From the NCBI GenBank assembly GCA_965217585.1, contig OZ244561.1:3008001-3072000 (forward strand): a DNA stretch of 64,000 nucleotides. The letters are read 5' to 3'. The notes under the pieces are model-generated. The model saw nothing but the letters and a program-made list of their open reading frames with translations, was not told where the DNA came from and searched no databases. Source of the DNA: Candidatus Latescibacterota bacterium. GTDB taxonomy: Bacteria > Latescibacterota > UBA2968 > UBA8231. Numbering within the stretch: position 1 is the first letter of the stretch; each line of letters opens with the position of its first letter. Of the stretch, positions 8-51,355 are shown piece after piece. Made by a program: the position numbers and the translations under genes.

Positions 8-823
8 TTGCCCAAGCCCGCCAGAGAGGCCCCGGACGCGAGTTTTCGCGGCGATTCGCACGCCGACCTAGCGGTGGCGGTGGCCGATCTGGGCGTGCCG
101 ATGATCTTCCTCGAAAAGGCCATGGCCAGTTCAATGGAGCGCGCCGACGAAATCCGCGATGCCGTAAAGCGCAACAACGCACTCTTCAACACGGGCGTCC
201 TGCGTCGCTTTGACAACCGCTACGAGGTGGTCAAGGACGCGGTCGCCGCCGGTCAGGTCGGCGAGGTCCGGGCCGCGATTCACTACGCCAGCTCCAGCCT
301 GATGCACGGGCACATCCATTCGATCGACACGGTGTCCTATCTCATCGGCGACCCGGCGATTGCCGCCGTGCGCGGCGAGCTTTTGCCCCGAGGCTTGCAA
401 GTCGAGGGCAATCACATTCCGGCCGACCCTTTGGCCACCTATCAACTGCGCTTTGCCAACGGCGTCGAAGCGTGGTCAATTCCCGCGACCCCGTGGGAAT
501 TCGAGGTCATCGGCTCGGAGGGCGCAATTCGCTCGTGCAACAACGGGGCCGACGTTTTGCTGCGTCGGCCCGGTGCCGTGCAAGGACGGAGCGCCTTGTG
601 GGAGGAGGTGCCCGTCGATCCGGTGACGCCGCGCAGTACGACGCAGTGCTGCTTGGAGGATTTGGTAGCGGCGCGCGAATCCGGCCAACCCACGCGCGGC
701 CACATCGACGTGACTCACCACATCACAGAAGCCACCATCGCCGTAGCCGAGAGCCACCGCCAAGGCGGCGCTTGGGTAGAGTTGCCGCTGCCTGCGCGTG
801 ACCTGTACATTTTTCACATCTAG
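8..823 (+). CDS. Gfo/Idh/MocA family oxidoreductase (5' end probably outside window)
   Basis: HADLAV...FLEKAMA, RRF and HGHIHSID motifs; similar to 2506..3540. Confidence 0.8.
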   Translation: MPKPAREAPDASFRGDSHADLAVAVADLGVPMIFLEKAMASSMERADEIRDAVKRNNALFNTGVLRRFDNRYEVVKDAVAAGQVGEVRAAIHYASSSLMHGHIHSIDTVSYLIGDPAIAAVRGELLPRGLQVEGNHIPADPLATYQLRFANGVEAWSIPATPWEFEVIGSEGAIRSCNNGADVLLRRPGAVQGRSALWEEVPVDPVTPRSTTQCCLEDLVAARESGQPTRGHIDVTHHITEATIAVAESHRQGGAWVELPLPARDLYIFHI

Positions 824-7500: not shown

Positions 7501-10500
7501 GTCGGCTGCGAAGTCAGTACCATCGTGTAGCTTTTGGAATCGCCTTCCGGCACCTCCAGCGCGGCAGTTGAGATCGTCACCTCGGCGGTGTCGTCTTCGG
7601 TGATCGACACCACGACGCCTGCTGCGGATATGCCCTCATAGTCTCCACCGCTGACGGCGTGCGTCAGCACCACCGGATCGTCGGCTACCGCGTCGTCGTC
7701 GTGGGCTGCGGTTACCGCGACCGTTTGCGCCTGATTCCAATTAGCCGCCGTGAACGTCAGCGCCGATGGGGCCACCGCAATGTCCGTGTCCTCTGGCACC
7801 TGTACTGCGACCGGCACGTTTGCTGTCGGCTGCGAAGTCAGTACCATCGTGTAGCTTTTGGAAGCGCCTTCCGGTACCTCCAGCGCAGCAGTTGAGATCG
7901 TCACCTCGGCGGTGTCGTCTTCGGTAATCGACACCACGACGCCTGCTGCGGATATGCCTTCGTAGTCTCCGCCGCTGACGGCGTGCGTCAGCATTACCGG
8001 GTCGTCGGCTACCGCGTCGTCGTCGTGGGCTGCCGTTACCGCGACCGTCTGCGCCTGATTCCAATTGTCCGTCGTGAACATCAGCGCCGATGGGGCCACC
8101 GTAATGTCTGTGTCCTCTGGCACCTGTACTGCGACCGTCACGTCTGCTGTCGGCTGCGAAGTCAGCACCATCGTGTAGCTTTTGGAATCGCCTTCCGGTA
8201 CCTCCAGCGCGGCAGTTGAGATCGTCACCTCGGCGGTGTCGTCTTCGGTGATCGACACCACGACGCCTGCTGCGGATATGCCCTCGTAATCGCCGCCACT
8301 GATCGCGTGCGTCAGCACCACCGGATCGTCGGCTACCGCGTCGGCATCCTGAGCGGCGGTCACCTTCACCGTTTGCGCCTGATTCCAATTAGCCGCCGTG
8401 AACGTCAACGCCGATGGGGCCACCGTAATGTCTGTGTCCTCCGGCACCTGTATTACGACCGTCACGTCTGCCGTCGGCTCCGAGGTCAGCACTACCGTGT
8501 AGCTCGCGCTGCCACCCTCGTCCACCGTCAACGCTGTTGGGGTCACTGTTACGCCGCGCTCGTCGTTGTCGATGACTGGTACCGTGGCACTGGCCGCATC
8601 GCCCGCCCGATGGGTTGCGCCATCCGTGACCGTCGCCGTCACTGCGCCGTCCGCCTCGTCGCGCTCGTCGTCATCTGTCGCCACCTTAAGCGTCGCGTTT
8701 GACGCATCCACCGCGAACACTGCTTCGCTGGGTGCTCCGTCCGCGAGGAACGCGCCGCGCTCCGTTACACTCAGCGGCACGGTCAGCGGCACGGTCAGGT
8801 CGCCTACCCGCGTCAGCGTGAACGTCATCGTCCCGCCTTCTTCCACTGCCGCTGGGTCTGCCGCCACGCTCACCACCGGCAGGTCGTTATCGGTGATTAC
8901 GCCGGTCGCCTCGCCATTTTTGATCGTCGCGTTCTTCGGTTCACTCAATAGGACCGTGAACGCTTCGGCCGCCTCGTCTAGGTCGTCGTCGATGATGGGT
9001 ACGCGGATCGTCTGCGCCGTCTCTAAGACGGGGAAGGTCAGCGTCCCGGTCGTTCCCTCATAGTCAGTGTCCGCCATCGCTGTGCTGTCGGCGGTCGCAT
9101 ACTCTACTGTCACTGTCTGGCTGCTGGCCACGTTCAGCGTCACGGTGAACTCCAGCACTTCGTCCCCCTCCGCTGCTGCTCCGTCAGTGATCGACAACTC
9201 CGGCGTGTCGTTCTCGGTGATGGTGACCGTCACGGATTCGGCCGTTACCGTGCCGTAGTCGCCGCCACGGACCGCGTGCGTCAGCACCACCGGATCGTCG
9301 GCCACGGCGTCGTCGTCGTGGACAGCCGTTACTGTTACCGTCTGCGGTATCCTCCAATTCTCGGCCGTGAATGTCAATTCCGTCTCGTCCACCGCGACCT
9401 CCGCGTCTTCGGGCACCTGCACTGCGACCGTCACGTTTGCCGTCGGCTCCGAAGTTAACACCACCGTGTAGCTCGCGCTGTCGCCCTCGGGTACCGTCAA
9501 CGCCGTCGGGGTTACGGTCACGCCGCGCACGTCGTTGTCGGTGACCGGTGCCGTCGCGCGGTTGGATTCGCTTACCCGGTGAGTCGCGCCATCCGTGATC
9601 GTCGCCGTCACCGCGCCGTCCGCCTCGTCGCGCTCGTCGTCGTCTGTCGCCACCTGAAGCGTCGTTGTCTCCGCATCTACATCGAACGTCGCCTCGGTGG
9701 GTGCTCCATCCGCGAGGAACGCGCCGCGCTCCGTCACGTCCACCGGCACCGTCAGCGGCACGGTCAGGTCGCCCACTCGCGTCAGTGTGAACGTCACCGT
9801 CGCGCCTTCTTCCACCGCTGTCGGGTCGGCTGCCACGCTTACCACCGGCAGATCGTTGTCGGCGATCACGCCGGTCGCCTCGCCATCTCCGCTTGTCGCG
9901 TTGGAAGCATTGCTCAGCGCGACCGTGAACGCTTCGGCCGCCTCGTCTAGGTCGTCGTCGATGATGGGTACGCGGATCGTCTGCGCCGTCTCTAAGACGG
10001 GGAAGGTCAGCGTCCCGGTCGTTCCCTCATAGTCAGTGTCCGCCATCGCTGTGCTGTCGGCGGTCGCATACTCTACTGTCACTGTCTGGCTGCTGGCCAC
10101 GTTCAGCGTCACGGTGAACTCCAGCACTTCGTCCCCCTCCGCTGCTGCTCCGTCAGTGATCGACAACTCCGGCGTGTCGTTCTCGGTGATGGTGACCGTC
10201 ACGGATTCGGCCGTTACCGTGCCGTAGTTGCCGCCACGGACCGCGTGCGTCAGCACCACCGGATCGTCGGCCACGGCGTCGTCGTCGTGGACAGCCGTTA
10301 CTGTTACCGTCTGCGCCTGATTCCAATTCTCGGCCGTGAATGTCAATTCCGTCTCGTCCACCGCGACCTCCGCGTCTTCGGGCACCTGCACTGCGACCGT
10401 CACGTTTGCCGTCGGCTCCGTGTCCAGCACCACCGTGTAGCTCGTGCTGCTGCCCTCGGGTACCGTCAGCGCCGTCGGGGTTACGGTCACGCCGCGCACA

Positions 10501-13500
10501 TCGTTGTCGGTGACCGGTGCCGTCGCGCGGTTGGATTCGCTTACCCGGTGAGTCGCGCCATCCGTGATCGTCGCCGTCACCGCGCCGTCCGCCTCGTCGC
10601 GCTCGTCGTCGTCTGTCGCCACCTGAAGCGTCGTTGTCTCCGCATCTACATCGAACGTCGCCTTGGTGGGTGCTCCATCCGCGAGGAACGCGCCGCGCTC
10701 CGTCACGTCCACTGGCACCGTCATTGGCACGGTCAGGTCGCCCACTCGCGTCAGTGTGAACGTCACGGTCGCGCCTTCTTCCACCGCCGCTGGGTCGGCC
10801 GCCACGCTTACCACCGGCCGGTCGTTGTCGGCGATCACGCCGGTCGCCTCGCCCTCTTCGATCGTCGCGTTGGAAGCATTGCTCAGCGCGACCGTGAACG
10901 CTTCGGCCGCCTCGTTTAGGTCGTCATCAATGATGGGCACGCGGATCGTTTGGGTCGTCTCCAAAGCGGGAAAAGCTAGCGTGCCGGTCGTTGTCCCGTA
11001 ATCCGTCCCCGCCGTCGCCGTGCCATCGGCGGTCGCGTAATCGACCGTCACCGTCTGGCTGCTGGCCACGCTCAGCCGCACTGAAAACGCCATCGCCCCG
11101 TCGCCCTCCGCCGCCGCCGCGTCGGCGATCAATAGTGTCGGCGTGTCGTCCTCAATGATCGTTGCCTCAACGCTGGCTGCCGTTACCAACCCGTAGTTGC
11201 CGCCGCTGACTGCGTGACGGATCGTCACTGGATCGTCGGCCACGGCGTCGGCATCCTGAGCCGCGGTCCCTGTTATCGTCTGCGGTATCCTCCAATTCTC
11301 GGCCGTGAATGTCAATTCCGTCTCGTCCACCGCGACCTCTGCGTCTTCGGGTACCTGCACTGCGACCGTCACGTTTGCCGTCGGCTCCGAAGTTAACACC
11401 ACCGTGTAGCTCGCGCTGTCGCCCTCGGGTACCGTCAACGCCGTCGGGGTTACGGTCACGCCGCGCACGTCGTTGTCGGTGACCGGCACCGTCGCGCGGT
11501 TGGATTCGCTTACCCGGAGGGTCGCGCCATCCGTGATCGTCGCCGTCACCGCGCCGTTTACTTCGTCCACATCATCATCGACCGTCGCCACCTGAAGCGT
11601 CGTATTTATCGCACCCACCGCGAACATCGCCTCGGTGGGTGCTCCGTCCGCGAGGAACGCGCCGCGCTCCGTCACGTCCACCGGCACCGTCAGCGGCACG
11701 GTCAGGTCGCCCACTCGCGTCAGCGTGAACGTCACGGTCGCGCCTTCTTCCACCGCCGCTGGGTCGGCCGCCACGCTTACCACCGGCCGGTCGTTGTCGG
11801 CGATCACGCCGGTCGCCTTGCCCTCTTCGATCGTCGCGTTGGAAGCATTGCTCAGCGCGACCGTGAACGCTTCGGCCGCCTCGTTTAGGTCGTCGTCGAT
11901 GATGGGCACGCGGATCGTTTGGGTCGTCTCCAAAGCGGGAAAAGCTAGCGTGCCGGTCGTTGTCCCGTAATCCGTCCCCGCCGTCGCCGTGCCATCGGCG
12001 GTCGCGTAATCGACCGTCACCGTCTGGCTGCTGGCCACGCTCAGCCGCACTGAAAACGCCATCGCCCCGTCGCCCTCCGCTGCCGCCGCGTCGGCGATCA
12101 ATAGTGTCGGCGTGTCGTCCTCAATGATCGTTGCCTCAACGCTGGCTGCCGTTACCAACCCGTAGTCGCCGCCGCTGACTGCGTGACGGATCGTCACTGG
12201 ATCGTCGGCCACGGCGTCGGCATCCTGAGCCGCGGTCCCTGTTATCGTCTGCGGTATCCTCCAATTCTCGGCCGTGAATGTCAATTCCGTCTCGTCCACC
12301 GCGACCTCTGCGTCTTCGGGTACCTGCACTGCGACCGTCACGTTTGCCGTCGGCTCCGAAGTTAACACCACCGTGTAGCTCGCGCTGTCGCCCTCGGGTA
12401 CCGTCAACGCCGTCGGGGTTACGGTCACGCCGCGCACGTCGTTGTCGGTGACCGGCACCGTCGCGCGGTTGGATTCGCTTACCCGGAGGGTCGCGCCATC
12501 CGTGATCGTCGCCGTCACCGCGCCGTTTACTTCGTCCACATCATCATCGACCGTCGCCACCTGAAGCGTCGTATTTATCGCACCCACCGCGAACATCGCC
12601 TCGGTGGGTGCTCCGTCCGCGAGGAACGCGCCGCGCTCCGTCACGTCCACCGGCACCGTCAGCGGCACGGTCAGGTCGCCCACTCGCGTCAGCGTGAACG
12701 TCACGGTCGCGCCTTCTTCCACCGCCGCTGGGTCGGCCGCCACGCTGACTACCGGCAGGTCGTTGTCGGCGATCACGCCGGTCGCCTTGCCCTCTTCGAT
12801 CGTCGCGTTGGAAGCATTGCTCAGCGCGACCGTGAACGCTTCGGCCGCCTCGTTTAGGTCGTCGTCGATGATGGGCACGCGGATCGTTTGGGTCGTCTCC
12901 AAAGCGGGAAAAGCTAGCGTGCCGGTCGTTGTCCCGTAATCCGTCCCCGCCGTCGCCGTGCCATCGGCGGTCGCGTAATCGACCGTCACCGTCTGGCTGC
13001 TGGCCACGCTCAGCCGCACTGAAAACGCCATCGCCCCATCGCCCTCCGCCGCCGCTGCGTCGGCGATCAATAGTGTCGGCGTGTCGTCCTCAATGATTGT
13101 TACCTCAACGCTGGCTGCCGTTACCAACCCGTAGTCGCCGCCGCTGACTGCGTGACGGATCGTCACTGGATCGTCGGCCACGGCGTCGGCATCCTGAGCC
13201 GCGGTCCCTGTTATCGTCTGCGGTATCCTCCAATTCTCGGCCGTGAATGTCAATTCCGTCTCGTCCACCGCGACCTCTGCGCCTTCGGGCATCTGTGTCG
13301 TGACCGTCACGTTTGCCGTCGGCTCCGAAGTTAACACCACCGTGTAGCTCGCGCTGTCGCCCTCAGGAATCATCAACGCCGTCGGGGTTACGGTCACGCC
13401 GCGCACGTCGTTGTCGGTGACCGGCACCGTCGCGCGGTTGGATTCGCTTACCCGGAGGGTCGCGCCATCCGTGATCGTCGCCGTCACCGCGCCGTTTACT

Positions 13501-36375: not shown

Positions 36376-37269
36376 ATGCCCATCCGCTTCGTCTTCCTCA
36401 CCGACACTCACCACTACCCCGACGCCCCCGAAGACTACGGCGCGCCCAAGATGCTCACCCGCAGCCAGGAGGTGCACGACGCGATTCCCTCTGCCCTCAA
36501 CGCGCAGGCTTTCGATTTTGTCGTCCACGGCGGCGACTTCCTCTGTGGCGGGTCGTCCTTCGACCTGCCCACCGAGACCTATTTGCGCTCGATTGACGAG
36601 GCGGCTACGGCCTTCGCGCGGATTGAAGCCCCTTTCTACTCAATCCCCGGCAACCACGACTGCGACGCCCAGAGCGGATCCTTCGACGGTTTTGCCGCCC
36701 GCTTTCCCTATCCCGACCCGCTGATCGTCGTCGATGCCGCGCCGCGCCTGCGCTTGGCACTGGCCAATGTCTTCCACGACTGCGATGTCTTTGAGAAAGG
36801 GTCTGGCGTCTGGACCGACGTCTTGGATGAGGCTCTGCGCGCTGCCGCTGCTCAAGCTCTAGCCGATGGCTGTGCCCTGCTGCTCGTTCTCCACACTTGG
36901 GTTCTGCCCGAGTTCTCTTGGGACCACGGCGTGGTCGAAGGCGCGCCTCGTCTGGTCAAAACGCTCGACGAAAGCCCTGCTATCGTCGCTGCCTTCACCG
37001 GCCACCGCCACATCAACCGCATCACCGCCTACCGCGACTATCTAGTCGTCGATACGGCCTGTCTGATCGGCTTCCCCTTGGGGTATCGCAGCGTTGTGCT
37101 CTCTGACGATGGCTTTTTCAAGACGCGCTTCCACACTCTCGACCTGCCCGATCTACTACAAGCTTCCTACGACCGCTCGACGCCCGAGGAGAACCGGGTC
37201 TGGGAAGGTCACATCTTCGACCGGGACGTGGAGATTCTGGTGCCTCGGCTCAGGGCGCTGTGGGGTTGA
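36376..37269 (+). CDS. Calcineurin-like metallophosphoesterase
   Basis: DTH, GGD, GNHD, GHRH; AAGGAG RBS. Confidence 0.9.
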   Translation: MPIRFVFLTDTHHYPDAPEDYGAPKMLTRSQEVHDAIPSALNAQAFDFVVHGGDFLCGGSSFDLPTETYLRSIDEAATAFARIEAPFYSIPGNHDCDAQSGSFDGFAARFPYPDPLIVVDAAPRLRLALANVFHDCDVFEKGSGVWTDVLDEALRAAAAQALADGCALLLVLHTWVLPEFSWDHGVVEGAPRLVKTLDESPAIVAAFTGHRHINRITAYRDYLVVDTACLIGFPLGYRSVVLSDDGFFKTRFHTLDLPDLLQASYDRSTPEENRVWEGHIFDRDVEILVPRLRALWG

Positions 37270-37322
37270 ATGGGGCGACTCAGCGACTGCTCTATAAAAC
37301 CTTATCGCAATAGTCTGCTCAT

Positions 37323-40003: not shown

Positions 40004-40636
40004 GTGAGCGAAATGACTCATATGGCCGACAAGATCATGAAGAGAGTGTCCGCACACGGTAGGGGCAGGTGGGTGTGCACACCGAAGGACTTCCTAGACC
40101 TCGGCAGCCGTGAAGCCGTTGACCAAGCCTTGTCGCGTCTCGTCAAAGCGGATCAGCTACGCCGGGTCGGCCACGGGCTGTACGATATGCCTAGGATGAG
40201 CGACGTCCTGAAGCGGCCCGCGCCAGTCGATCTTGATGCCTCCATAGCAGCGCTCGCAAGAAGGGACGGTGTCCGTATTATGCCCGATGGCTTGGCGGCT
40301 GCGAATCAGCTTGGGCTCACCAACGCGCTACCTGCTAAGGCATCTTACGTGACGGATGGCTCCTCAAGGACGGTCAAGATCGACGGACGAACGGTCCGGT
40401 TCCGCCATGCGGGGCCGAGCGTCATGCAGTGGGCGGGAAAGCCGTCGGCACCGGTGGTGCAAGCGTTGCGCTGGCTTGGCCCAGAGGCTGCTGCCGACGC
40501 GCAGGTCGTTTCGATTTTGAGTCGCCATCTTCCCGACGCGGTGAAGCGCGATCTGTTCCAAAACAGCCGGCACCTGCCCGGTTGGGCGCTGCCGCTGGCA
40601 CGCAGTATCACGGCTGATCAGGCCGTTGCCGTATGA
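40004..40636 (+). CDS. DUF6088 / AbiEi-type type IV antitoxin
   Basis: FLDLGSREAVDQALSRL, RVGHGLY, ANQLGL. Confidence 0.85.
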   Translation: MSEMTHMADKIMKRVSAHGRGRWVCTPKDFLDLGSREAVDQALSRLVKADQLRRVGHGLYDMPRMSDVLKRPAPVDLDASIAALARRDGVRIMPDGLAAANQLGLTNALPAKASYVTDGSSRTVKIDGRTVRFRHAGPSVMQWAGKPSAPVVQALRWLGPEAAADAQVVSILSRHLPDAVKRDLFQNSRHLPGWALPLARSITADQAVAV

Positions 40637-41023
40637 GTGGAACCTTCGAGACCTTCCCCACCCTTTCGGAACAAGACAAGCGGGACGTGTTCGAAGCGTC
40701 GGCGAGCCGACTTGATACGTTGCCCAGTTACGTAGAAAACGACTTCTGGGTCTGTCTTGTCCTCGATGTGCTCTACAACCGGCTGCCCGACGGGCATCCG
40801 AAACTGCTTTTCAAGAGCGGGACCTCCCTGTCCAAGGCATTTGGGCTTATTCGGCGGTTCTCTGAAGACATCGATCTCGGTGAGATTGGTTCCACAGGCG
40901 GCTCTGCGCACAGTGATTGAGCGGGATTACGTAGCCATGCAGGGGATGATCCTCGGGGATGTTCCGACTTTCGGATGGGTCGTGGAACAGCTTCAGCGGG
41001 CCGAGGCCACGATCAACGAATGA
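40633..41023 (+). pseudogene. AbiEii nucleotidyltransferase toxin with large internal deletion
   Basis: N-terminal E.DFWV...FK.GTSLSK...RFSEDIDL joined out of frame to C-terminal-like RDYVAMQGMI...INE*. Confidence 0.85.
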
Positions 41024-42692: not shown

Positions 42693-42743
42693 ATGGTTAA
42701 GCCGTTCACTGGCAAAGCGCAGACAGGCGCGAATATCTTCAGA
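42693..42743 (-). pseudogene. 3' remnant of a DUF433 gene
   Basis: 42711-42743 is 30/33 identical to 46019-46051; encodes SEDIRACLRFASERLNH. Confidence 0.75.
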
Positions 42744-42811
42744 AGCGTTCTTAAAACTAGGGTTTCGGTCTCTTACTTGGCCCCAAGCATCTGGGAACGA
42801 GGGCGTCTCGC

Positions 42812-42933
42812 CCTGCGGCTGGCACTGGCCAACGTCTTTCACGACTGAGATATAACCGGGTCTGGGAAGGGCACATCCCTGACCGGGACGCGGAGATTCT
42901 GCTGCCTCGGCTCAGGGCGCTGTGGGGTTGAAT
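42812..42933 (+). pseudogene. Internally deleted remnant of metallophosphoesterase gene
   Basis: 42812-42847 matches 36747-36782; 42854-42933 matches 37192-37271 including the stop. Confidence 0.85.
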
Positions 42934-43344
42934 TACCTTCGTCTTCTGAACTCCCGCCATTGCGATACCGCAACTAGGTAGTGTCGAAAAAACAAGTTGA
43001 AAAGTCGTCTTATACAGGCCAGATTTTCACCCCATGTCGCTTCGCAGTCGGACGTTTCTTTTTGGGCCACGGCAATCCGTAACTGGCATCCGAAAGAGAA
43101 CGCTGGAACTCTTTGAACGAGATCGTCAAAGAAACGTTCTCCATCACTTTTTTATAGAGCGTTTCTGCAATTCTCTGCGCAGCAATAGATTCCGAATATG
43201 AAACATTGTGTTCCCCAGTATGTACTAACGCCGAACGAGCACTATAAAGGGAACGGATATCTTTTGCGATTATAGCTCGGTCTTCAGCATCCGGGCTCAA
43301 AATCGTTGCTGCATATCGAGATATTGTTTGAATAACCGGTGCGG

Positions 43345-44610
43345 CAGGGCAATCGCATTATAAGTTGATTTTTACCATGCGGTTATGTTACTTTTGGCCG
43401 TTCTATGGAGATTAGCTTCATGTCCTCCCATTTCCCTCTTGCTCGGAGTGTTTCTTCATGCCCTCATCGTCTTCAGGGTTGCTGGATTATCTGGCCGATA
43501 TCCCCGACCCGCGTATGGAGCGTTGTCGGGCGCATCGCTTGATTGATATTCTCATGATTGCGGTGTGTGGCTCTATCTGCGGGGCCGACAACTGGGTGGC
43601 GATCGCCGAATTTGGCCGGGCTAAAACCGACTGGCTTAAGACGTTCTTGGCTTTGCCCAACGGCATCCCCTCGCATGATACCTTCGGTCGCGTGTTGGCC
43701 CGTATTTCGCCTTGGCATTTCCAAGACTGTTTCACCGCTTGGGTGCAATCGCTGATGCCGAAGTTGGCCGACGAAGGCGAGATCGTGCCGCTGGATGGCA
43801 AGACGCTGCGCCGCTCCTACGATACAGGCTCGGGCCAAGCCGCCATCCACATGGTGCATGCTTGGGCGGTAAAAAATCGGCTGGTCTTGGGACAATTCCA
43901 TGGTGAAGAAGCCTTGGAAGAAATCTCGATTATCCCCGAATTATTACGCGTGTTAGGCCTCAAAGGCTGCCTGGTCACCACCGATGCGTTGGGGTGTCAT
44001 ACGAGCACGGCCGAACAGGTCGTCGAACAAGAGGCCGACTATGTGCTGGCCGTCAAGGCCAATCAACCCAAACTCCACGCCCATCTCCAACAGCTTTTTG
44101 ACCGTTCCGACTCGAAACTCCACGCTGATCCCGCCGTAGATTATTGGGGTACTCAGGACGAAAACCACGGGCGTTGCGAAACGCGGCAGTACTGGACCAC
44201 CGACCAGATCGAGGATTTTGCCGGGCATGCCCTGTGGCCGGGCTTACGCCTGTTTGGTATGGTCGAGGCCACCCGGCGCTGCGGCGATACTGTTTCGGTC
44301 GAACGACGTTACTATATCTCCACGCTGGACAACAACGCCCAACGGTTGGGGCAGGCCGTGCGCGGGCATTGGGCTATTGAGAATGCATTACACTGGATCC
44401 TTGATGTCGTCTTCAACGAAGATCAGTCCCGCATACGCCGGGGGCATGGCCCCGAAAATATGGCCGTTATACGCCACATCGCGCTCAATCTACTCCAGCA
44501 AGACAAAACGACCAAAGCCGGCATGCAAACCAAACGGCTCAAGGCTGGCTGGGACCACAAATATCTGGCTAAACTTTTGTCGCATGGCCATTTATAATGC
44601 GATTGCCCTG
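43345..44610 (+). mobile_element. ISAs1 family insertion sequence, 1266 bp
   Basis: 19-bp terminal IRs CAGGGCAATCGCATTATAA; 9-bp TSD CCGGTGCGG at 43336-43344 and 44611-44619. Confidence 0.95.
43458..44597 (+). CDS. ISAs1 family DDE transposase
   Basis: DPR, GIPSHDTF, DGKTLR, DA, VKANQ, HWAIEN.LHW.LDV.F.ED. Confidence 0.95.
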   Translation: MPSSSSGLLDYLADIPDPRMERCRAHRLIDILMIAVCGSICGADNWVAIAEFGRAKTDWLKTFLALPNGIPSHDTFGRVLARISPWHFQDCFTAWVQSLMPKLADEGEIVPLDGKTLRRSYDTGSGQAAIHMVHAWAVKNRLVLGQFHGEEALEEISIIPELLRVLGLKGCLVTTDALGCHTSTAEQVVEQEADYVLAVKANQPKLHAHLQQLFDRSDSKLHADPAVDYWGTQDENHGRCETRQYWTTDQIEDFAGHALWPGLRLFGMVEATRRCGDTVSVERRYYISTLDNNAQRLGQAVRGHWAIENALHWILDVVFNEDQSRIRRGHGPENMAVIRHIALNLLQQDKTTKAGMQTKRLKAGWDHKYLAKLLSHGHL

Positions 44611-45746
44611 CCGGTGCGGTCTTGTCGTTGCTAGATAACAGAGACTCGATTGCCGTAAAAAAGAAAAGGAATCGTTCCGCACGATCCACTGTCTGGCGTC
44701 CGCGGGTAAGCCAGCCAAGCCCTTGGCTGAAGCGCTTCGCCAAGCTATTCTTGTGAGGGTTAAAGATTACCCTTGCTCTATCCTTGAATTCTTTTTCTTT
44801 AGTTATCGCGGCTACAGCATCATCGACAACATATAATCTAGGGATTGATGAGTTTGTTTTTACATTGTTATTGAGTATGTCGATTATGATGCCTTGATCA
44901 TTTACTTTTGGCTTGATCAGTGGCATTGTCTCAACTTCACCGAATGAAGGAAAAAAATCAACTTTCGATCGTGAATAAGAAAGACGAAGAAAACTGATGG
45001 CGACATTGATCAACCAAGCAGCCTCTTCTCTGACATTTCCCTCGGTTACATCAACAGAGACGTGCCAGCAAATTTGAGGCAGTTGAATCAGCATTCCGTT
45101 CGGACCTAAGAATATAGAAAACTCTGATCCAGACTCGATATTGTAGTTCAAATTGGGTATTAAATCGTCCGATAGAATTGCTTCTACTGGACCAATTTCA
45201 ATTTTTCGTGCCTGTTCATGGAATTTTATTAAGTGATTTGGAGCGACATATTTGAAACTACGCTTCGTATGATTACTGAGTGCGTCCAAGAAGCGCTTCG
45301 TAATGATAGATACCTCTGGAGCTGAATTATTTGCGAGACTTAGCGCGACTTGCTCCCAAGCCAGTTCTTCAACTTCTTTTTCGTTTCCTAAATTTGCTCC
45401 CAATAGCTTAACGCATCGAGCGACAAAATCGTATTGTGCTTTGAGAACATCGTCAGTCACTACGAACAAGAAGCCTTTACTAAGTCTGATATCTTCTTTA
45501 ATAAAATCCTCTTCATTAAGCTGACTACGGTGAGAGGCACATGCAGCCCGAAAAAAGATGTCTGCTTTATTCTTAAGTTCTTGGTCTGATTTGCACTTGT
45601 TAATGACTTGGTTGTCCATAGCTCACTTCTCCTGAGATGCCGGCTTAAAATAGTGTTCGATCTAGCCAGAGCTTGAAAGGATGTAATGCCGTCCGTGTAG
45701 AGATGTTCATGTCGGTGCGAAGATGTAATTCTGACACAGTTTTTGC

Positions 45747-45975
45747 TTACGGTATTGGTGTTAATTGAGTCTGCCCAGAGACGACCCACACCACATATCC
45801 TATGGACTGAAGCACGTCTTCTTTTTCGAGTTCTGGGTACGCTCCAAGACTTCTGTGACGGATTTGCCCCCGGCCAGCATTCTGAATATCACGCCTATAG
45901 TGATCCTCATGCCCCAACAGTGGGTCGTCCCAAGCAGGTGCTGGGATCGATAGTTATGCGGTCAAGATCTTTCAA
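45747..45975 (-). pseudogene. Frameshifted DUF433 gene, followed by possible DUF5615 toxin N-terminal remnant (45686-45737)
   Basis: LDRITIDPSTCLGRPT/MRITIG/YPELEKEDV across frames; then VSELHLRTDMNISTRT. Confidence 0.7.
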
Positions 45976-45985
45976 TTGATGACTT

Positions 45986-46207
45986 CTATCCGTTACTCTC
46001 CATCGCCGCACCCGAACAGGCAAACCGCAGACAGGCGCGAATATCCTCGGATTCAAGGTCTGGATGCTCGGCCAAAATCTGTTCAGTAGTCAAGTCGGCG
46101 GCGAGCAAATCCAGTACATCCGTGACGCGAATCCGCATCCCCCGAACACAGGGTCGTCCCCCGCATTGCTTGGGATTTACCGTGATGCGATCGGTTAGAA
46201 TAGCCAT
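45986..46207 (-). CDS. DUF433 antitoxin-like protein
   Basis: RITVNPKQCGGRPCVRGMRI, HPDLESEDI. Confidence 0.9.
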   Translation of the reverse strand: MAILTDRITVNPKQCGGRPCVRGMRIRVTDVLDLLAADLTTEQILAEHPDLESEDIRACLRFACSGAAMESNG

Positions 46208-46234
46208 AGCGGTCCTTTCTTACACAGTTCTATT

Positions 46235-48460
46235 TCAAGTTCGAAACCGCCAAGGAATAGTGGCGAAAAAATTTTTGATCTCCTCATAACGTTTCATTCT
46301 CTTTTTGAGGACTTGGAGGTCTTCTTGGCTGTCTTTAAAAGCATCTTTAAGCTCCTTGATATATTTCTTGTGCTGCTTATCAAGGTTATCTGCGCCCTTA
46401 TTGAAAGCAGTCAAAGTTTCCTTCCAGAAGGATTCGGAATCCTTCTCAATGCTTGAAAGTACGTTCTTCTCATCAAACAAGCCTTTGATTTTCTTGGCCA
46501 AACGTAGTTGCCAACTGTCTCCAAAAAGCAATTTAAAAGAAGCTCCTACCGCAATGGCCACTCCGAGTGCTAAGGTAATTGGCCCTCCCAGTGTCGAGAC
46601 AAGTGCAGTGGCACCAGCCGTACCGCCCGCGACAGAGATTCCCGTAGCGGACAGAGCACTAACCCCCTTTGCAACGATCACATATCCGCCAAGGTTGCCC
46701 AAGGTGGCAGCCCAAGCACCAAGGGCACCAAGGGTACCAAGTCCCGCTAATCCCCCGATAAATGCCCCCCTTGCATCAAATGGTGTGGAAAATTCTTCTT
46801 TTATGTTCGCATTGCCGAACTTTCCTATTTGCTCATCGTAGCTTTTTACGAATTTCTCAATGATATTGCGAGTCTCATTTATTAATTTTTCCCGATGACT
46901 CGCCGTCTTGGATTGAATTTCTTTAAGGACATAAGCGGAGGCATACTTCTGAGCGTCTTTCTTATCCTTGTAGCGTCGTTTTATCATCGCCTCCAGTTTC
47001 TCGACTTTCGTTTCCTCTTCAAAAACCGCTCGTATTTTTTTTAAATCTTCTTCCTTGAATGTGGTAATTTTCTTTTTTATTCGCGTCACCTCTTTATCAT
47101 AGTTCTTCTTTCTTTCAGGTTCCTCCATTTCCAATCGTTTATAGTAACTTCTTGCTTCTTTCAGATGTCTCCGAATTTTCTCATATCCGCTGATTGCCTT
47201 CGCGTAAGTGTCTGTTCCCTCCTCCTTAAATTTGAGGATTTCTTGTCCTGCAAGAATCCTCTTAATGGACGGCATTTTCTGCTCCAGCAAGTCTTTTAAT
47301 TCCTTTTCCAGCTTTTCTCGTTTGCGGGGCTCTTCTTGGTAAAAGCTGAAAAAACGAGCGGCAACATCCTTACTCGATATTAGCCGTCCGTGCCTGCTTA
47401 ATTTTTTAAGGAGATTGCCTTCAAGGTGGTTATAGAGTGCCTCGCTCCCCCCTTTTAATATCTCATCCTCAAGCTGGGGTCTTTTTATACCTGGATGGGC
47501 GTGCGAAGCAATGATGAAAAGATTGCCGAGAATGGGAAAGTTCTCATCAATTGCTCTATAAGGTGGGATGCTGCGTAATAAATGGCTAAGATGTGCGAGG
47601 TCTCCACCATCGATAAATCCTTGCGCAGGACAAAGATACAACAAAACCTCTGCACGACGGCCTAGCCGATCAATAACAGAGGCATTTGTCATCTCGTCGT
47701 CGTATCCAGGCAAATCTACTAAGACGCACGAGTGGAGCAATGGAGCTTTGATAAAAGCCAAGACGGCTCCTTCCTCACTCTTATCTTTTCTACCTTCTAG
47801 GTGGCCTTTCGTGCGTAGCGTATCCCAACTCCCGGCCAAGACGCGGTTATCGGTACAGTACTTTTCCTCGTTCCATCTCTCAGGATCAAAATCAGGTCCC
47901 ATGAGCCACAGATCTTCCTTAAACCATTCGGGCTGGTCAGAGGTATGACGAACAAATGTTGGGTACTTTGTTACTGGACGGTAACCAGTGGGAAGTTGAT
48001 CCCCTCCTAAGTAGAAATTGCAGAGATGGGACTTCCCCGCATCAAAATGCCCGGTGAGTACAACCCATGGTTTTTCTTTTAAGGCGGTAACACGGTCACG
48101 GAACTGCTTAACAGTTGGGTTAATTGGTTCATCCCCCATCTTTTCAAGGTGGGGAAATCGGTCAATGTACTGCCGCAGTAGATTTAAGTCTTCTGTAAGA
48201 GACCCATACAGACTGCTATCGAAGTCAAAGATTGTTTCTTCTGACTCTGACGGGAGTGGAAGAAGCTCGTCAAGAAGCTCAAGAAGCTCGTCAATTGTGC
48301 ATCCTATGGCTCTCGCCCACGCTCTTAACAGATTACTAGGAATTTCTCTGTTGGCCTCGTATTTGGATACTTGGGCTTGAGTAATATCAAGGCTTTGAGC
48401 TAGATCAGCTTGGGTCAATCTTGCTTCTTTTCTAAGTGCCGCTAAGTCCTTTACAGACAT
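46235..48460 (-). CDS. XRE-HTH fused to dynamin-like GTPase
   Basis: N-terminal LTQADLA..QAQVSKYE; G1 GHFDAGKS, G3 DLPG; coiled coils; Gly/Ala-rich hydrophobic segment near the C-terminus. Confidence 0.82.
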   Translation of the reverse strand: MSVKDLAALRKEARLTQADLAQSLDITQAQVSKYEANREIPSNLLRAWARAIGCTIDELLELLDELLPLPSESEETIFDFDSSLYGSLTEDLNLLRQYIDRFPHLEKMGDEPINPTVKQFRDRVTALKEKPWVVLTGHFDAGKSHLCNFYLGGDQLPTGYRPVTKYPTFVRHTSDQPEWFKEDLWLMGPDFDPERWNEEKYCTDNRVLAGSWDTLRTKGHLEGRKDKSEEGAVLAFIKAPLLHSCVLVDLPGYDDEMTNASVIDRLGRRAEVLLYLCPAQGFIDGGDLAHLSHLLRSIPPYRAIDENFPILGNLFIIASHAHPGIKRPQLEDEILKGGSEALYNHLEGNLLKKLSRHGRLISSKDVAARFFSFYQEEPRKREKLEKELKDLLEQKMPSIKRILAGQEILKFKEEGTDTYAKAISGYEKIRRHLKEARSYYKRLEMEEPERKKNYDKEVTRIKKKITTFKEEDLKKIRAVFEEETKVEKLEAMIKRRYKDKKDAQKYASAYVLKEIQSKTASHREKLINETRNIIEKFVKSYDEQIGKFGNANIKEEFSTPFDARGAFIGGLAGLGTLGALGAWAATLGNLGGYVIVAKGVSALSATGISVAGGTAGATALVSTLGGPITLALGVAIAVGASFKLLFGDSWQLRLAKKIKGLFDEKNVLSSIEKDSESFWKETLTAFNKGADNLDKQHKKYIKELKDAFKDSQEDLQVLKKRMKRYEEIKNFFATIPWRFRT

Positions 48461-48518
48461 CAGACAACCTCCTTTATGATTTCTGCGATGTTTTCCACGA
48501 TCGAGCTGTTGAGTTAAG

Positions 48519-48824
48519 TTATCGTTTCGCCAACCCCTTCTGCCGTCCGAGGCGCAGTGTGCGTTTCTGATCCGCTGGCCGTGAGGGATAGGCGGTGACG
48601 ACGCTCTTGCCGCGCATCACGACCTTGCAATTCGCAAGGCGTTCCAGTACTTGGATTTCCCGCTTGCGGATCTCGATTTCGCGGGCGACATCCCGCCTGA
48701 GCGCAATCCAAGCCTCGTCGTCAACCTGCGTTCCCCACTCGATAATGAGGGGAATATCCTTTTCGCGAATGCCCCGCTGCTGCATGCGCGTCTCGGCGTG
48801 GCGGGTATAAGTGATGTCAGTCAT
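48519..48824 (-). CDS. DUF4258 domain protein (putative RNase toxin-like)
   Basis: YTRHAETRMQQRGI...VVTAY; GGAG RBS. Confidence 0.75.
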   Translation of the reverse strand: MTDITYTRHAETRMQQRGIREKDIPLIIEWGTQVDDEAWIALRRDVAREIEIRKREIQVLERLANCKVVMRGKSVVTAYPSRPADQKRTLRLGRQKGLAKR

Positions 48825-48909
48825 TGGTCCTCTCCTCCATTTTTCATTTAGGAGTTGGTCCTTCGGGAATCAGCCTCTCACTTACCACTCTTTCTCTAAA
48901 ACTCTGCGT

Positions 48910-48938
48910 AATATATAATCTCAAAATACTCGTGTCAA
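48910..48938 (-). promoter_or_regulatory. sigma70-type promoter for DUF4258/dynamin operon
   Basis: TTGACA-N17-TATATT. Confidence 0.65.
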
Positions 48939-49117
48939 GATTTATTTAGTAATTTTATTCCAAATATGAATATTTATATTCGCAGGCCAAGGTGAGAGAG
49001 ATTTCTCATATTTAGAGAACACATGTTCAATAGTTAAGTCGGTGGCAAGCAAATCCAGCACATTTCAAAAAATTTACCAGACCTGTGATGCAGGCGGTGC
49101 TTATGGGTAAATACCTT

Positions 49118-51355
49118 ATGAGCGATACCGATCTTTCATCTCTCGTCATCCGCGCCCAGACCGGCGACCGCGCAGCCTACGACGGCATCGTCCGCCGTTT
49201 CCAGGACATGGCGGTAGGCTACGCCTCTGCGTTGCTGGGCGATTTCCACTTGGCTGAGGATGCGGCTCAGGAGGCCTTTGTCGGGGCCTGGACCGAGTTG
49301 CCGCGCTTGCGGGAACCGGCGGCCTTTCCGGGGTGGTTCAAGCGCATTGTTTTTATGCGCTGTAGCCGCTTTTTGCGCCAACGGCATCCGGCGGCGAGAT
49401 GCGAGATGGAGGAGGTACGGCCGCTGGCGGTGAGGGATCCGGGGGAGGAACTTGAGTCGCGCGACGAGAAGGCCCAGGTCTTGGGTGCGATTGGGCGGCT
49501 GCCCGACCAGGAGCGGATGGCGACGATGCTGTTTTACATTTCGGCCTATTCGCACCAAGAAATCGCCTCGTTTTTGGGCTTGTCTGCGGCGACGGTCAAC
49601 AACCGGTTGCGCTCGGCTCGCAAACACCTACGCAAGGAGATGCTGAAGATGGCTAAACGGGAATTGCAGGGACAGGCCCCTTCGCGCGACGAGCGCTTCG
49701 CGCAGCGGGTCGCGCATCTGCTCCAGCCCGAAGACATGAAGACCGAGCACTACCAATACGGGATCGAGGCCGTGGACGGGCATCCGGCTTGGGCGCTTTT
49801 TTGCGCCAGCGGGGCCGGCGATCTAGCGCGGGTCAGCGCGTTACTCGACCGCGACCCCAAGTTGGTCAATGCCCAGTACTGGTACCAGTTTCCCATTCAC
49901 ATGGCGGTGCGCGAGGGCCATGTCGAGGTGGTCCAGCTATTGTTGCAGGCTGGGGCCGATCCGGGCCAGTCGCGCTATACCTATAATTCGTGGGACAAGC
50001 TACTAGCCATCGCCGAGGAGCGCGACTACGGGGAGGTGCAGGCGCTGTTGGTGGCGGCGATGTGCGAGCGCTTTGGCTACGATCCGGGTTTTGTTGTGCT
50101 GGCCGAGGCGATCAAAGGCCGCGACCGGGCGCGGGTCGAGGCGGTGCTGGCCGAGCATCCCGACTTTATCCGTGCCGCCGACGCGCTGGGCAACGGGCCG
50201 CTGCACTGGGCGGCGCTGACGCGGCAAAACGACTTGGTGGATTTCTTTGTCGCACGGGGTGCCGACCTCGAAGCCCGCCGCGCCGATGGCCAGACTCCGC
50301 TACTGGTCTCGCTCAACGGCGACTACTGGTTTCGGACGCGTGATCTGTCGGCGGAAGCGCCGCAAGATCCGTGGATCGTCACCCGCCACTTGCTCGCTTG
50401 CGGTGCGGAGTACGCTCTCAGCATCGCCTGTGCGGCCGGCGATGAAGACCGCGTCGATGCGGTACTGGCGGCCAATCCGGCCCAAGCCCGTACTCTCGAT
50501 GCTGGATGTCCGCTGTCCTATGCCGCTGGCAACGGTCATACCCGAATCGTCGAAAAACTGCTGGATTGGGGTGCCGACCCCAATCAGTCCGAAGAAAATG
50601 CGCCGCGCGGCGGAGCGCTCTTCGGCGCTTGCGCGGGCAACCACTTGGAGACGGCGAAACTGCTGCTGGAACGCGGTGCCGATCCCAACGCCGGGGTGGA
50701 CTCTTCGGGCTCGTGCTTGACCATTGTCGAGGTCAGGCACGGCAAGAAAGGCCAACAAATGCAGGCGCTGTTGCGCGAACACGGTGCCGTGATGCCGCCC
50801 TTTGCCATGGACGACGCGGCGCTGGAACGGGCGATGCGCGAAGGAGAGGTCGTCGTTGCACACCCACAATTTTTGCACGAGTTGATGGGAAGGGACAATC
50901 CTGCGCTCATTGGCGTCTTCTTGGCAACCACGCCGAATGTAGACGACCTGTTCCAACTGACCGACATCTGGGGCGGCAACTACCCTTCGGATCCCGATAC
51001 AATCCGCACCTTGGCCGACCGCGGCCTCGACCTACACCGCGCCAACTGGATCGGCCGCACCTTTCTGCACGGCTGTGCGGAAAAGGGCGATGTGGCGGCG
51101 GCTCGCGTCTTTTTGGAATTGGGAGCCGATATAGAGGCGATCGAGTTGGAATACGGGGGGACGCCTTTGGCCACTGCGGCGCGCAAGGGGCAGGCGGAGA
51201 TGGTGCGGTTTCTATTGCAACAAGGTGCCGATCCAGCCGTGCCGGCCGAATCGCCTTGGGCGCAGCCGCTTTATTGGGCGGAGAAGGAGGGACATGGGGA
51301 AGTGGCGGTGTTGCTCAAAGAGTGGTTCGACGGGAAAGGCGCTGGCGGCGGTTAG
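49118..51355 (+). CDS. ECF sigma factor with C-terminal ankyrin-repeat extension
   Basis: AEDAAQEAF, FPGWF (region 2); EIASFLGLS..TVNNRL (region 4); several ankyrin repeats. Confidence 0.88.
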   Translation: MSDTDLSSLVIRAQTGDRAAYDGIVRRFQDMAVGYASALLGDFHLAEDAAQEAFVGAWTELPRLREPAAFPGWFKRIVFMRCSRFLRQRHPAARCEMEEVRPLAVRDPGEELESRDEKAQVLGAIGRLPDQERMATMLFYISAYSHQEIASFLGLSAATVNNRLRSARKHLRKEMLKMAKRELQGQAPSRDERFAQRVAHLLQPEDMKTEHYQYGIEAVDGHPAWALFCASGAGDLARVSALLDRDPKLVNAQYWYQFPIHMAVREGHVEVVQLLLQAGADPGQSRYTYNSWDKLLAIAEERDYGEVQALLVAAMCERFGYDPGFVVLAEAIKGRDRARVEAVLAEHPDFIRAADALGNGPLHWAALTRQNDLVDFFVARGADLEARRADGQTPLLVSLNGDYWFRTRDLSAEAPQDPWIVTRHLLACGAEYALSIACAAGDEDRVDAVLAANPAQARTLDAGCPLSYAAGNGHTRIVEKLLDWGADPNQSEENAPRGGALFGACAGNHLETAKLLLERGADPNAGVDSSGSCLTIVEVRHGKKGQQMQALLREHGAVMPPFAMDDAALERAMREGEVVVAHPQFLHELMGRDNPALIGVFLATTPNVDDLFQLTDIWGGNYPSDPDTIRTLADRGLDLHRANWIGRTFLHGCAEKGDVAAARVFLELGADIEAIELEYGGTPLATAARKGQAEMVRFLLQQGADPAVPAESPWAQPLYWAEKEGHGEVAVLLKEWFDGKGAGGG

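Follow-up and report, generated by a model that had tools for sequence, protein, structure and literature searches.

Gene content of the islet

Within a 64,000-nt stretch of a Candidatus Latescibacterota chromosome of 7.3 Mb (hereafter the window) lies an islet in which the gene of a small DUF4258-like toxin is followed by that of HTH-dynamin, a dynamin-like protein that carries a helix-turn-helix (HTH) domain at its N terminus. The pairing of these two genes, which we found to be recurrent but facultative, is the main subject of this analysis. The islet is flanked by a gene that joins an extracytoplasmic-function (ECF) sigma factor to ankyrin repeats and by a DUF445 gene, and reading its minus strand from 48,938 to 43,010 we encountered a promoter-like site, the toxin gene, HTH-dynamin, a DUF433 gene and the two open reading frames (ORFs) of a HEPN gene (Table 1). 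Spacers of 58 nt, 27 nt and ~370 nt separate the toxin from HTH-dynamin, HTH-dynamin from DUF433, and DUF433 from the 398-aa ORF, respectively. Comparison loci and genomes are labelled L and G throughout, G000 being the source genome.

A sequence-only reading of the window had described the block as AT-rich and co-oriented, with a TTGACA-N17-TATATT promoter of its own. Its GC content is indeed 0.41-0.50 between 44500 and 48999, against 0.53-0.67 in the flanks, but an insertion sequence (IS) of the ISAs1 family, with a GC content of 0.57-0.58 and a transposase on the plus strand, breaks both the composition and the common orientation. The promoter-like site is present and is the best-scoring one in the region. 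Such sites are no commoner there than in shuffled sequence (4 versus 6.8 +/- 2.4), so that its position is the sole argument for this one. An RNA-library contig from a related strain stops at 48890, ~20 nt 3' of the -10 hexamer; contigs of this kind, here and below, prove neither transcripts nor transcript starts, DNA carry-over being possible.

Table 1. Features of the islet, with their positions in the window.
Feature	Position	Strand	Basis
DUF4258-like toxin gene, 101 aa	48519..48824	-	Pfam PF14076, 25.5 bits; subfamily profile
HTH-dynamin gene, 741 aa	46235..48460	-	Pfam, structure model, Foldseek
XRE HTH of HTH-dynamin, residues 1-64	48269-48460	-	HTH_3, residues 6-59, E 2.6e-11
G1 of HTH-dynamin, GHFDAGKS	48029-48052	-	motif
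G3 of HTH-dynamin, DLPG	47705-47716	-	motif
Helical stalk of HTH-dynamin	residues 378-546 and 650-733	-	model
Gly/Ala/Leu-rich hydrophobic membrane-type segment of HTH-dynamin, 74 residues, residues 573-646	46523-46744	-	hydropathy
TTGACA-N17-TATATT promoter-like site, 5' of the toxin gene	48910..48938	-	11/12 positions match
HTH-X 3'-end relic, ~20 codons, two in-frame stops	48824..48889	-	tblastn
Intact DUF433 gene, 73 aa, 27 nt 3' of HTH-dynamin	45986..46207	-	Pfam PF04255
Second DUF433 copy, degenerate through frameshifts and a stop	45770..45985	-	three-frame translation, tblastn, DNA alignment
36-bp DUF433 3'-end copy; direct repeat of 46016-46051, 89% identity	42708..42743	-	tblastn, DNA alignment
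40-bp DUF433 interior fragment; direct repeat of 46080-46119, 87.5% identity	49024..49063	-	tblastn, DNA alignment
HEPN gene, N-terminal part, residues 1 to ~336 of ~444	44612..45619	-	alignment with P0087
HEPN gene, C-terminal part, RSALVH at 43220-43237	43010..43343	-	alignment, motif
398-aa ORF	44423-45619	-	no Pfam match
96-aa ORF	43010-43300	-	no Pfam match
ISAs1-family element, 1,268 bp; transposase ORF 43458-44597	43344..44611	+	NCBIfam NF033564

The fusion of an XRE HTH to a dynamin-like protein with a membrane-type segment, also proposed from the sequence, was borne out by matches to HTH_3 and Dynamin_N (PF00350; residues 133-283, E 1.1e-11, 45.5 bits against a cut-off of 27) and by a 74-residue hydrophobic stretch. 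The structure model of the protein (predicted local distance difference test (pLDDT) 77.9, predicted template modelling (pTM) score 0.76) comprises the HTH, a nucleoside triphosphatase (NTPase) domain and two long helical bundles, the membrane segment being modelled poorly (pLDDT below 50). Foldseek returned 87 matches at E<=0.001, and all among the matches listed belong to the dynamin superfamily; those at the top include the Nostoc bacterial dynamin-like protein (BDLP), C. jejuni DLP1/2, IniA, mitofusins, SynDLP and LeoA (2j69 from Nostoc, E 3.1e-10; 5oxf, E 1.2e-09; 6j72, E 7.0e-09). By sequence the best PDB match is a Campylobacter dynamin-like protein (DLP; E 3.6e-10). The model points to a BDLP-type fold with a G domain, a helical neck and trunk, and a membrane tip.

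With the solved bacterial dynamin-like proteins (Nostoc BDLP 2j68/2j69, Campylobacter DLP1/DLP2 5owv/5oxf, IniA and SynDLP) HTH-dynamin has in common the motifs G1-G3, helical stalk bundles and a hydrophobic tip. It differs from them in its N-terminal XRE HTH, which none of them possesses, and in having, where they have a short paddle, a Gly/Ala-rich segment of 74 residues, and unlike the tandem bacterial dynamin pairs it is encoded by a single gene (a second dynamin gene was found in 1 of 29 loci). Of the motifs behind the label of GTPase that the protein had been given, G1-G3 are conserved: among 66 aligned members, the six commonest forms of G1, all of them GxxDxGKS, account for 59 rows, G2 (PxT, six commonest forms) and G3 (DxPG, four listed forms) each for all 66, and G137, D140, G142, K143, T164, D249 and G252 are invariant. 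On the other hand, no NKxD-type G4 Asp appears in the motif patterns tabulated for these members. The place of G4 after the beta strand reads ASHAH or variants thereof, with no Asp in the 12 commonest patterns (65 of the 66 rows); a distant plasmid homologue has TRSD there.

The DUF4258 assignment of the toxin gene stands in part. Its product belongs to a conserved subfamily of ~100 aa (532 representative clusters at E<=1e-3) in which H9, R13, Q16, R17 and D23 are invariant (46-row alignment), all five being present in the window toxin, and kinship to DUF4258 is clear in the N-terminal motif HAxxRMxxRG. The Pfam match itself, however, is borderline: PF14076 covers only profile positions 1-27 of 71, at a score just above the cut-off of 25 for the protein and below it (23.5 bits, again positions 1-27 only) in a six-frame search of the genome. 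PADLOC gave no match for the toxins of the window, L016, L029 and L115. In the accessible part of one source DUF4258 figures among the RelE/ParE-superfamily toxins whose target is unknown, alongside 17 fusions of DUF4258 to MqsA, an HTH-type antitoxin (PMC11980606), and a 2026 preprint, as far as its accessible text goes, moves DUF4258 to the colicin-like BECR-fold branch, overlapping Ntox49 (10.64898/2026.08.28.747851). By this family literature the toxin is a predicted ribonuclease (RNase) of BECR fold. It resembles the known DUF4258 (PF14076) toxins of type II toxin-antitoxin (TA) systems in the HAxxRMxxRG motif and in its small size, and differs from them in that its subfamily lies barely at the Pfam cut-off, has a helical insert and is partnered by long HTH proteins, either HTH-X (~340 aa; see below) or HTH-dynamin (741 aa). 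Downstream of each of the genome's five canonical DUF4258 genes comes a small ORF of 75-89 aa, putatively encoding a YgiT/MqsA-type zinc ribbon or a DUF2283 protein, as judged by reading the sequences. The gap between the window toxin and HTH-dynamin contains no small ORF, and hence no adjacent small cognate antitoxin gene.

In comparisons with the related loci L001 and L002 the ratio of nonsynonymous to synonymous substitution rates (dN/dS) was 0.09-0.53 for the toxin and 0.30-0.48 for HTH-dynamin, the latter versus 0.14-0.25 for DUF445. These values are compatible with function of both genes, without deciding the matter.

Recurrence of the pairing and its possible working

We searched the surroundings of HTH-dynamin in 32 genome loci and four plasmid loci with a profile specific to the toxin subfamily, built for this analysis, over 6 kb on each side for most loci and over ~1.4 kb upstream in L120 and L122. 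The toxin was found to adjoin HTH-dynamin in 7 of the 32 genome loci, which belong to the Latescibacterota, the Acetobacterales and the Binatia, and in one of the four plasmid loci. With three phyla represented, the link between the two genes that the sequence-only reading had drawn is no local accident. In L001 and L002 the toxin lies 58 nt upstream of HTH-dynamin, as in the window; in four of the six Acetobacterales loci (L016, L027, L029 and L121) it stands directly upstream with an overlap or a gap of ~4-17 nt, the two genes being translationally coupled; in the Binatia locus L006 it is found ~0.6 kb downstream; and in L115, from plasmid pMsp11 of Acinetobacter sp. NEB149, it is adjacent in divergent orientation (hhalign probability 97%). 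In two Acetobacterales genomes (G168 and G171) the sole copy of the toxin lies 4 nt upstream of, or overlaps, the sole HTH-dynamin gene. The window toxin shares 82-84% identity with toxins of the same genus whose partner is HTH-X, against no more than 22-32% with the dynamin-paired toxins of the Acetobacterales, the Binatia and the plasmid, which indicates that the pairing arose or persisted independently and was not just passed down as one block.

RNA-library contigs from two studies span the toxin–HTH-dynamin junction (weak evidence, contigs not being transcripts), and prediction of a complex between the toxin and residues 1-130 of HTH-dynamin (score 0.04, mark 0.32) gave no answer either way. 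A lower count, with DUF4258 upstream in only 2 of 29 loci, was rejected, since Pfam at E<=1e-3, tblastn and BLASTP with the window protein overlook the diverged toxins. The Pfam DUF4258 model overlooks this subfamily, so that standard annotation conceals the pairing.

The usual partner of the toxin is HTH-X, a protein of 304-422 aa that combines an XRE HTH with a conserved domain not yet characterised; Pfam and PADLOC see only its HTH, the PADLOC matches (RmrA, CapH) being at the level of the HTH only. The toxin was found in 33 of 168 Latescibacterota genomes, and HTH-X immediately precedes it in 25 of the 30 loci of this phylum, with a gene overlap of 4 nt in most loci read. HTH-X and the toxin thereby make up a conserved two-gene module of their own (loci L085-L111; e.g. 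L085:1788-2855 with the toxin at 1492-1791), and a complete pair is present elsewhere in the source genome (G000:C1:1356835-1358405). Comparison of HTH-X with HTH-dynamin by hhalign found the HTH alone in common (probability 93.5%, columns 1-63), and BLASTP of HTH-dynamin against 19 HTH-X proteins gave no match under E 0.01.

Directly 5' of the window toxin we found what is left of an HTH-X gene, a 3'-end relic whose stop codon overlaps the toxin start as ATGA; a tblastn search of the window with the last 18-22 residues of HTH-X gave at best 59% identity over 22 aa (E 0.007). This relic can also be seen in L001 and L002, and full HTH-X is gone from all three loci. The genomes of L001 and L002 (G136 and G142) contain no HTH-X elsewhere, and in both the toxin ORF is intact with all invariant residues. 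The relic suggests that a partner swap took place, from HTH-X to HTH-dynamin.

We propose that HTH-dynamin would be the constant and self-sufficient part of the module, a membrane-bound NTPase that would assemble at a perturbed membrane as DynA does and that, while unassembled, would repress its own promoter through the HTH. The toxin would be a facultative add-on, silenced by HTH-dynamin through repression, binding or both. In this lineage HTH-dynamin would have replaced HTH-X as the partner of the toxin, and its recruitment to the membrane would lift control and free the RNase. The template for this mechanism is DynA of Bacillus subtilis, which confers phage resistance via membrane protection; DynA is a two-headed fusion with neither HTH nor toxin partner, unlike HTH-dynamin. 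Combined with the two-gene module and with the mosaic build of the islet set out in the last section, this proposal forms what we consider the best overall explanation, and we give it a probability of about 0.5. Its parts are not equally secure. That the toxin and HTH-dynamin are functionally linked seems probable. Control of the toxin by HTH-dynamin through its HTH after replacement of HTH-X, with release by membrane recruitment, is a tentative proposal against which the odds presently run, and the wider notion of a TA or abortive-infection module that has a mechanochemical membrane sensor as its 'antitoxin', in which a phage-damaged membrane would free the RNase and the same solution would have been reached in at least three phyla, is slightly more doubtful still.

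Several observations weigh against the proposal. No toxin lies within the span searched in 25 of the 32 HTH-dynamin genome loci, all cyanobacterial ones included, and G170 has HTH-dynamin but no toxin anywhere in its genome; such loci mean that the HTH cannot serve solely as an antitoxin, and they argue against the dynamin needing the toxin as its effector. Conservation of DUF4258 upstream of HTH-dynamin homologues, which the sequence-only reading had named as a check on its idea, is thus seen sometimes and in several lineages, but not in these 25 loci. Gene order and spacing of the pair vary among lineages, in the metagenome locus L030 the toxin has been destroyed by a 193-bp deletion while HTH-dynamin is intact, and on pMsp11 the gene that shares the orientation of the toxin is not the dynamin but a JukA homologue (PADLOC E 5e-71). 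The HTH-X relic is equally compatible with a decaying orphan toxin. In the motif patterns of the 66 aligned HTH-dynamin members no canonical G4 appears, so that GTP use is not established, nucleotide preference not being readable from sequence alone. PADLOC offers just a partial match to LeoBC for HTH-dynamin (E 7.8e-10, residues 397-725 only, in the C-terminal half) and nothing for the toxin. Finally, toxicity, binding, DNA binding, membrane association and phage defence are all predicted only.

Part of this evidence would suit a different account, in which the toxin is the orphan remnant of an HTH-X/toxin pair that landed by a stand-alone HTH-dynamin in a TA/defence hotspot, the two having no functional link here. 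The occurrence of the same toxin subfamily beside HTH-dynamin in the Acetobacterales (4 of 6 loci), the Binatia and the Acinetobacter plasmid speaks against it, as do G168 and G171 with their sole genome copies, and G136 and G142, which keep an intact toxin with all invariant residues and have no HTH-X anywhere. In its favour are the relic with in-frame stops directly 5' of the toxin, the deletion in L030 and the 25 toxin-free loci, together with decay throughout the islet (HEPN split by the IS, a second DUF433 copy with frameshifts, fragments of DUF433 and, close by, an AbiEii-type gene cut short) and the complete HTH-X/toxin pair elsewhere in G000, which could neutralise an orphan in trans. 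We judge this account unlikely overall, and retain the functional pairing as the preferred reading.

On pMsp11 (L115, 1030-4055) the toxin is followed by the JukA homologue, and both are divergent from a homologue of HTH-dynamin, which has a canonical-looking G4 (TRSD) and whose end falls within the Gly-rich membrane segment. By hhalign the plasmid JukA homologue is unrelated to HTH-X (probability 0.4%) and to HTH-dynamin (1.3%). JukA is known from jumbo-phage defence, in JukAB and with other effectors, and the window has no JukA. The plasmid arrangement may represent JukA defence in which a BECR toxin serves as the effector.

Distribution and genomic context of HTH-dynamin

The HTH-dynamin family comprises 85 database clusters with identities of 25-89%, and by record titles it spans at least seven phyla, its members coming from Latescibacterota, Binatia, Poribacteria, Cyanobacteria, Proteobacteria including Acetobacteraceae, Myxococcales, Nitrospirota and Gemmatimonadetes. 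Within taxa its distribution is patchy (7 of 168 Latescibacterota and 5 of 301 Acetobacterales genomes), and wherever found it is single-copy; the only other P-loop match in the source genome, a weak one, is ~0.34 Mb away. HTH-bearing homologues were also found on 10 mobilizable plasmids, beside restriction-modification (RM), anti-restriction and mobilisation genes. A phage collection yielded only four partial weak matches, to query residues 118-521 with the HTH part absent, all in Vibrio phages. In 29 genome loci the neighbours of HTH-dynamin include YoeB, MazF and ParE toxins, KAP and HerA NTPases, Dam methylases and transposases, and many others are ordinary genes (HypA/B, SpoIID, formamidase, glycosyl transferases). 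On this context a defence role for HTH-dynamin is an even bet.

The ordinary neighbours, and the fact that the family is single-copy wherever present, would also suit a protein that serves membrane maintenance or stress, carries an autoregulatory HTH and is no defence gene, the toxin, where present, being a selfish addiction element that stabilises the islet. Bacterial dynamin-like proteins serve general membrane roles, and membrane surveillance against antibiotics is reported for DynA in the accessible parts of two sources (PMC8844932, PMC12998192). This possibility appears to us improbable, less likely than the proposed module and also than the orphan account, given the very patchy occurrence of the family in both taxa, its presence on mobilizable plasmids beside genes of restriction, anti-restriction and mobilisation, the frequency of TA, KAP, HerA and transposase genes nearby, and the AT-rich islet in which it lies here.

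One known defence system close to it is Eleos, which is defined by two genes, LeoA and LeoBC, in the accessible text of its description (bioRxiv 10.1101/2022.12.12.520048). Both involve dynamin-like proteins, and distant members of the HTH-dynamin family match LeoA/LeoBC better than the window protein does. HTH-dynamin differs from Eleos in being a single dynamin-like gene with no LeoA neighbour, in its HTH fusion and, in some lineages, in its BECR toxin partner. The toxin–HTH-dynamin pair may be regarded as a variant on bacterial dynamin-like proteins and BECR toxin modules, and the pairing seems undescribed: in the literature searched, with supplementary tables beyond reach, we found no account of an HTH-fused dynamin or of its pairing with a toxin, and DUF4258 is treated there only as a BECR toxin family that awaits characterisation. 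A review of cyanobacterial dynamin-like proteins makes no mention of HTH, XRE or DNA-binding, and a paper on the lactococcal plasmidome names DynA only. For dynamin-like proteins a part in phage defence is already known (DynA, Eleos), but their way of sensing infection and their targets of control are for the most part unsettled; an HTH-fused dynamin family that is widespread, present on mobilizable plasmids and coupled to a small RNase-type toxin in several lineages would provide a simple testable handle.

Some further features of the family were noted. In L009, G088 and G078 HTH-dynamin is broken by internal stops or split into two frames, which implies that the gene is dispensable and decaying in some Latescibacterota lineages. 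In the Acetobacteraceae a conserved, strongly hydrophobic ORF of 59-70 aa lies 3' of HTH-dynamin (L016:8532-8744, L027:8157-8336, L029:3329-3508), overlapping its stop codon in L027 and L029, and its product may be a small membrane partner of HTH-dynamin. In a Myxococcales metagenome-assembled genome (L025:8396-10822) a second dynamin-like protein, with an N-terminal DUF4365, is encoded directly 3' of HTH-dynamin, the sole tandem case in the 29 loci.

DUF433, HEPN and the probable mosaic build of the islet

The block is very probably a mosaic of three separately inherited units. The first would be the two-gene module of toxin and HTH-dynamin (48938-46235), the second a DUF433 antitoxin-type gene whose relics mark the junctions of inserted segments, and the third a stand-alone ApeA-like HEPN gene, inactivated here by ISAs1. 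DUF433 and HEPN are passengers, unrelated to the toxin/HTH-dynamin unit.

The DUF433 gene named by the sequence-only reading was confirmed (PF04255, E 2.5e-24, 85.3 bits against a cut-off of 23.6); that reading missed the frameshifted second copy, two short DUF433 fragments and the ISAs1 split of the HEPN gene. The source genome holds 19 DUF433 matches, and dN/dS of the intact gene is 0.08-0.21. Both fragments are direct repeats of parts of it. The 36-bp repeats (46016-46051 and 42708-42743) bracket the HEPN segment, and the corresponding junction in L001 and L002 contains just one copy; the 40-bp repeats (49024-49063 and 46080-46119) bracket the toxin/HTH-dynamin segment. In L001 and L002, which are the closest relatives (85-87% identity), the order is ECF-sigma, toxin, HTH-dynamin, DUF433 and DUF445, with DUF445 straight after DUF433, and the same kind of joining, of 46019 to 42657, was seen in one RNA-library contig. 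By tblastn DUF433 is near HTH-dynamin in only three of the 29 genome loci, all Latescibacterota. DUF433 remnants thus border both inserted segments (49024-49063, 46016-46119, 45770-45985 and 42708-42779), and DUF433 genes may serve defence cassettes as anchors for recombination or insertion. L002 additionally has a stray 3' fragment of DUF433 at 11861-11938.

The HEPN gene with its RxxxxH motif, which reads RSALVH, had been recognised correctly, but it is split in two by the 1,268-bp ISAs1 element. The transposase matches NF033564 (E 3.5e-121; 404 bits, the cut-off being 70), the terminal inverted repeats of the element are perfect over 20 bp, and a target of 7 bp is duplicated (CGGTGCG, 43337-43343 and 44612-44618). 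The genome carries 14 further matches to it (three at 100%, five at 91-93% and six at 72% identity; 15 with the window copy). The intact relative P0087 (454 aa, 97% identity by BLASTP) is continuous across the insertion point (...NDKTAPVIQTIS...), which makes the window gene a recent insertional pseudogene; the insertion separates the RxxxxH helix from the first conserved HEPN helix, and the N-terminal part is 10 aa shorter than in relatives. The metagenome locus L030 has the window arrangement with an intact, IS-free HEPN gene. RNA libraries from four runs gave no contig over 44810-45693, in the N-terminal part of HEPN, a gap that proves nothing.

The HEPN family numbers 128 proteins at E<=1e-3, and R380, S381 and H385 (P0087 numbering) of the RSxLVH motif are invariant in the 36 aligned. 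The P0087 model (pLDDT 89.3) gave no Foldseek match in the PDB at E<=0.001. VIA-align of residues 298-418 placed Csm6 first (8jbc; Z 9.4, root mean square deviation 3.1, 118 residues aligned), followed by AF_0298 (2hsb, 9.2), a HEPN toxin (8xdj, 9.1), AbiV (9bj5, 7.6) and SO_3166 (5yep, 7.5); as Z values of this size are common for helical bundles, the HEPN call rests on the crowding of HEPN entries at the top and on the motif. None of the ApeA-specific models, which we take to include HEPN_Apea and ApeA_NTD1 in Pfam, matched in the 36 relatives searched with Pfam (E<=1), the six searched with PADLOC or the window fragments. Pfam gave a weak MauJ match in 23 of the 36 and otherwise no signal, and JGI calls eight listed relatives 'Apea-like HEPN'. 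The family resembles ApeA in its ~300-aa N-terminal domain, its C-terminal RxxxxH HEPN domain, its single gene and its defence and mobile neighbourhoods, and differs from it in being unmatched by ApeA models, in the lack of an ApeA structure among its fold matches and, in the window, in the IS split. We therefore call the gene ApeA-like in predicted architecture, membership in ApeA not being established. ApeA itself cleaves tRNA anticodon loops and is ligand-activated, according to the accessible part of a preprint (bioRxiv 10.64898/2026.01.26.701840).

Neighbourhoods of the HEPN family were compared in 44 of 49 metagenome loci, the short or weak L073, L074 and L076-L078 being left out. The neighbours include type I RM systems, SIR2, Mrr, HerA, a reverse transcriptase, AbiJ, a further HEPN protein and four phage-type integrases. 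The family stands alone, without a conserved partner, and DUF433 adjoins it in 1 of the 44 loci (L030). These data bear on the proposal of the sequence-only reading that DUF4258, HTH-dynamin, DUF433 and HEPN form one defence operon, in which the dynamin would control one or two RNases. In the window and in L030 the four genes share one orientation and stand close together, and all four families have TA or defence connotations. However, by tblastn HEPN is absent from L001 and L002 and the other 27 HTH-dynamin genome loci; DUF433 trails HTH-dynamin only in close Latescibacterota kin; the HEPN segment lies between direct repeats, as for an insertion; and HEPN is IS-inactivated while the remaining genes are intact. 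A four-gene operon is accordingly highly improbable, and the mosaic remains the preferred reading. The locus illustrates the building and decay of a defence islet, with DUF433-bracketed insertions, an IS in the HEPN gene and a deleted partner gene.

Several observations concern the surroundings of the islet. A plus-strand gene divergent from it (49085-51355) encodes a 756-aa protein in which an ECF sigma factor, with regions 2 and 4, is joined to a long domain of ankyrin repeats; the fusion is kept in L002, and in L001 only the sigma part (192 aa) is left. At 40004-40920 an AbiEi-like gene (DUF6088, 210 aa) is followed by just the first 95 codons of an AbiEii-type gene. The latter measures 414 aa in L002, of which ~645 bp (10264-10909) have no counterpart in the window, so that this AbiE pair seems to have lost part of its toxin gene in the window. 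Between the HEPN fragment and DUF445, the spacer (42812-42933) repeats 36747-36786 (40 bp, 87.5%) and 37192-37271 (80 bp, 92.5%), 5.6-6 kb off, and within it 42857-42931 is also matched by RNA-library contigs from other organisms.

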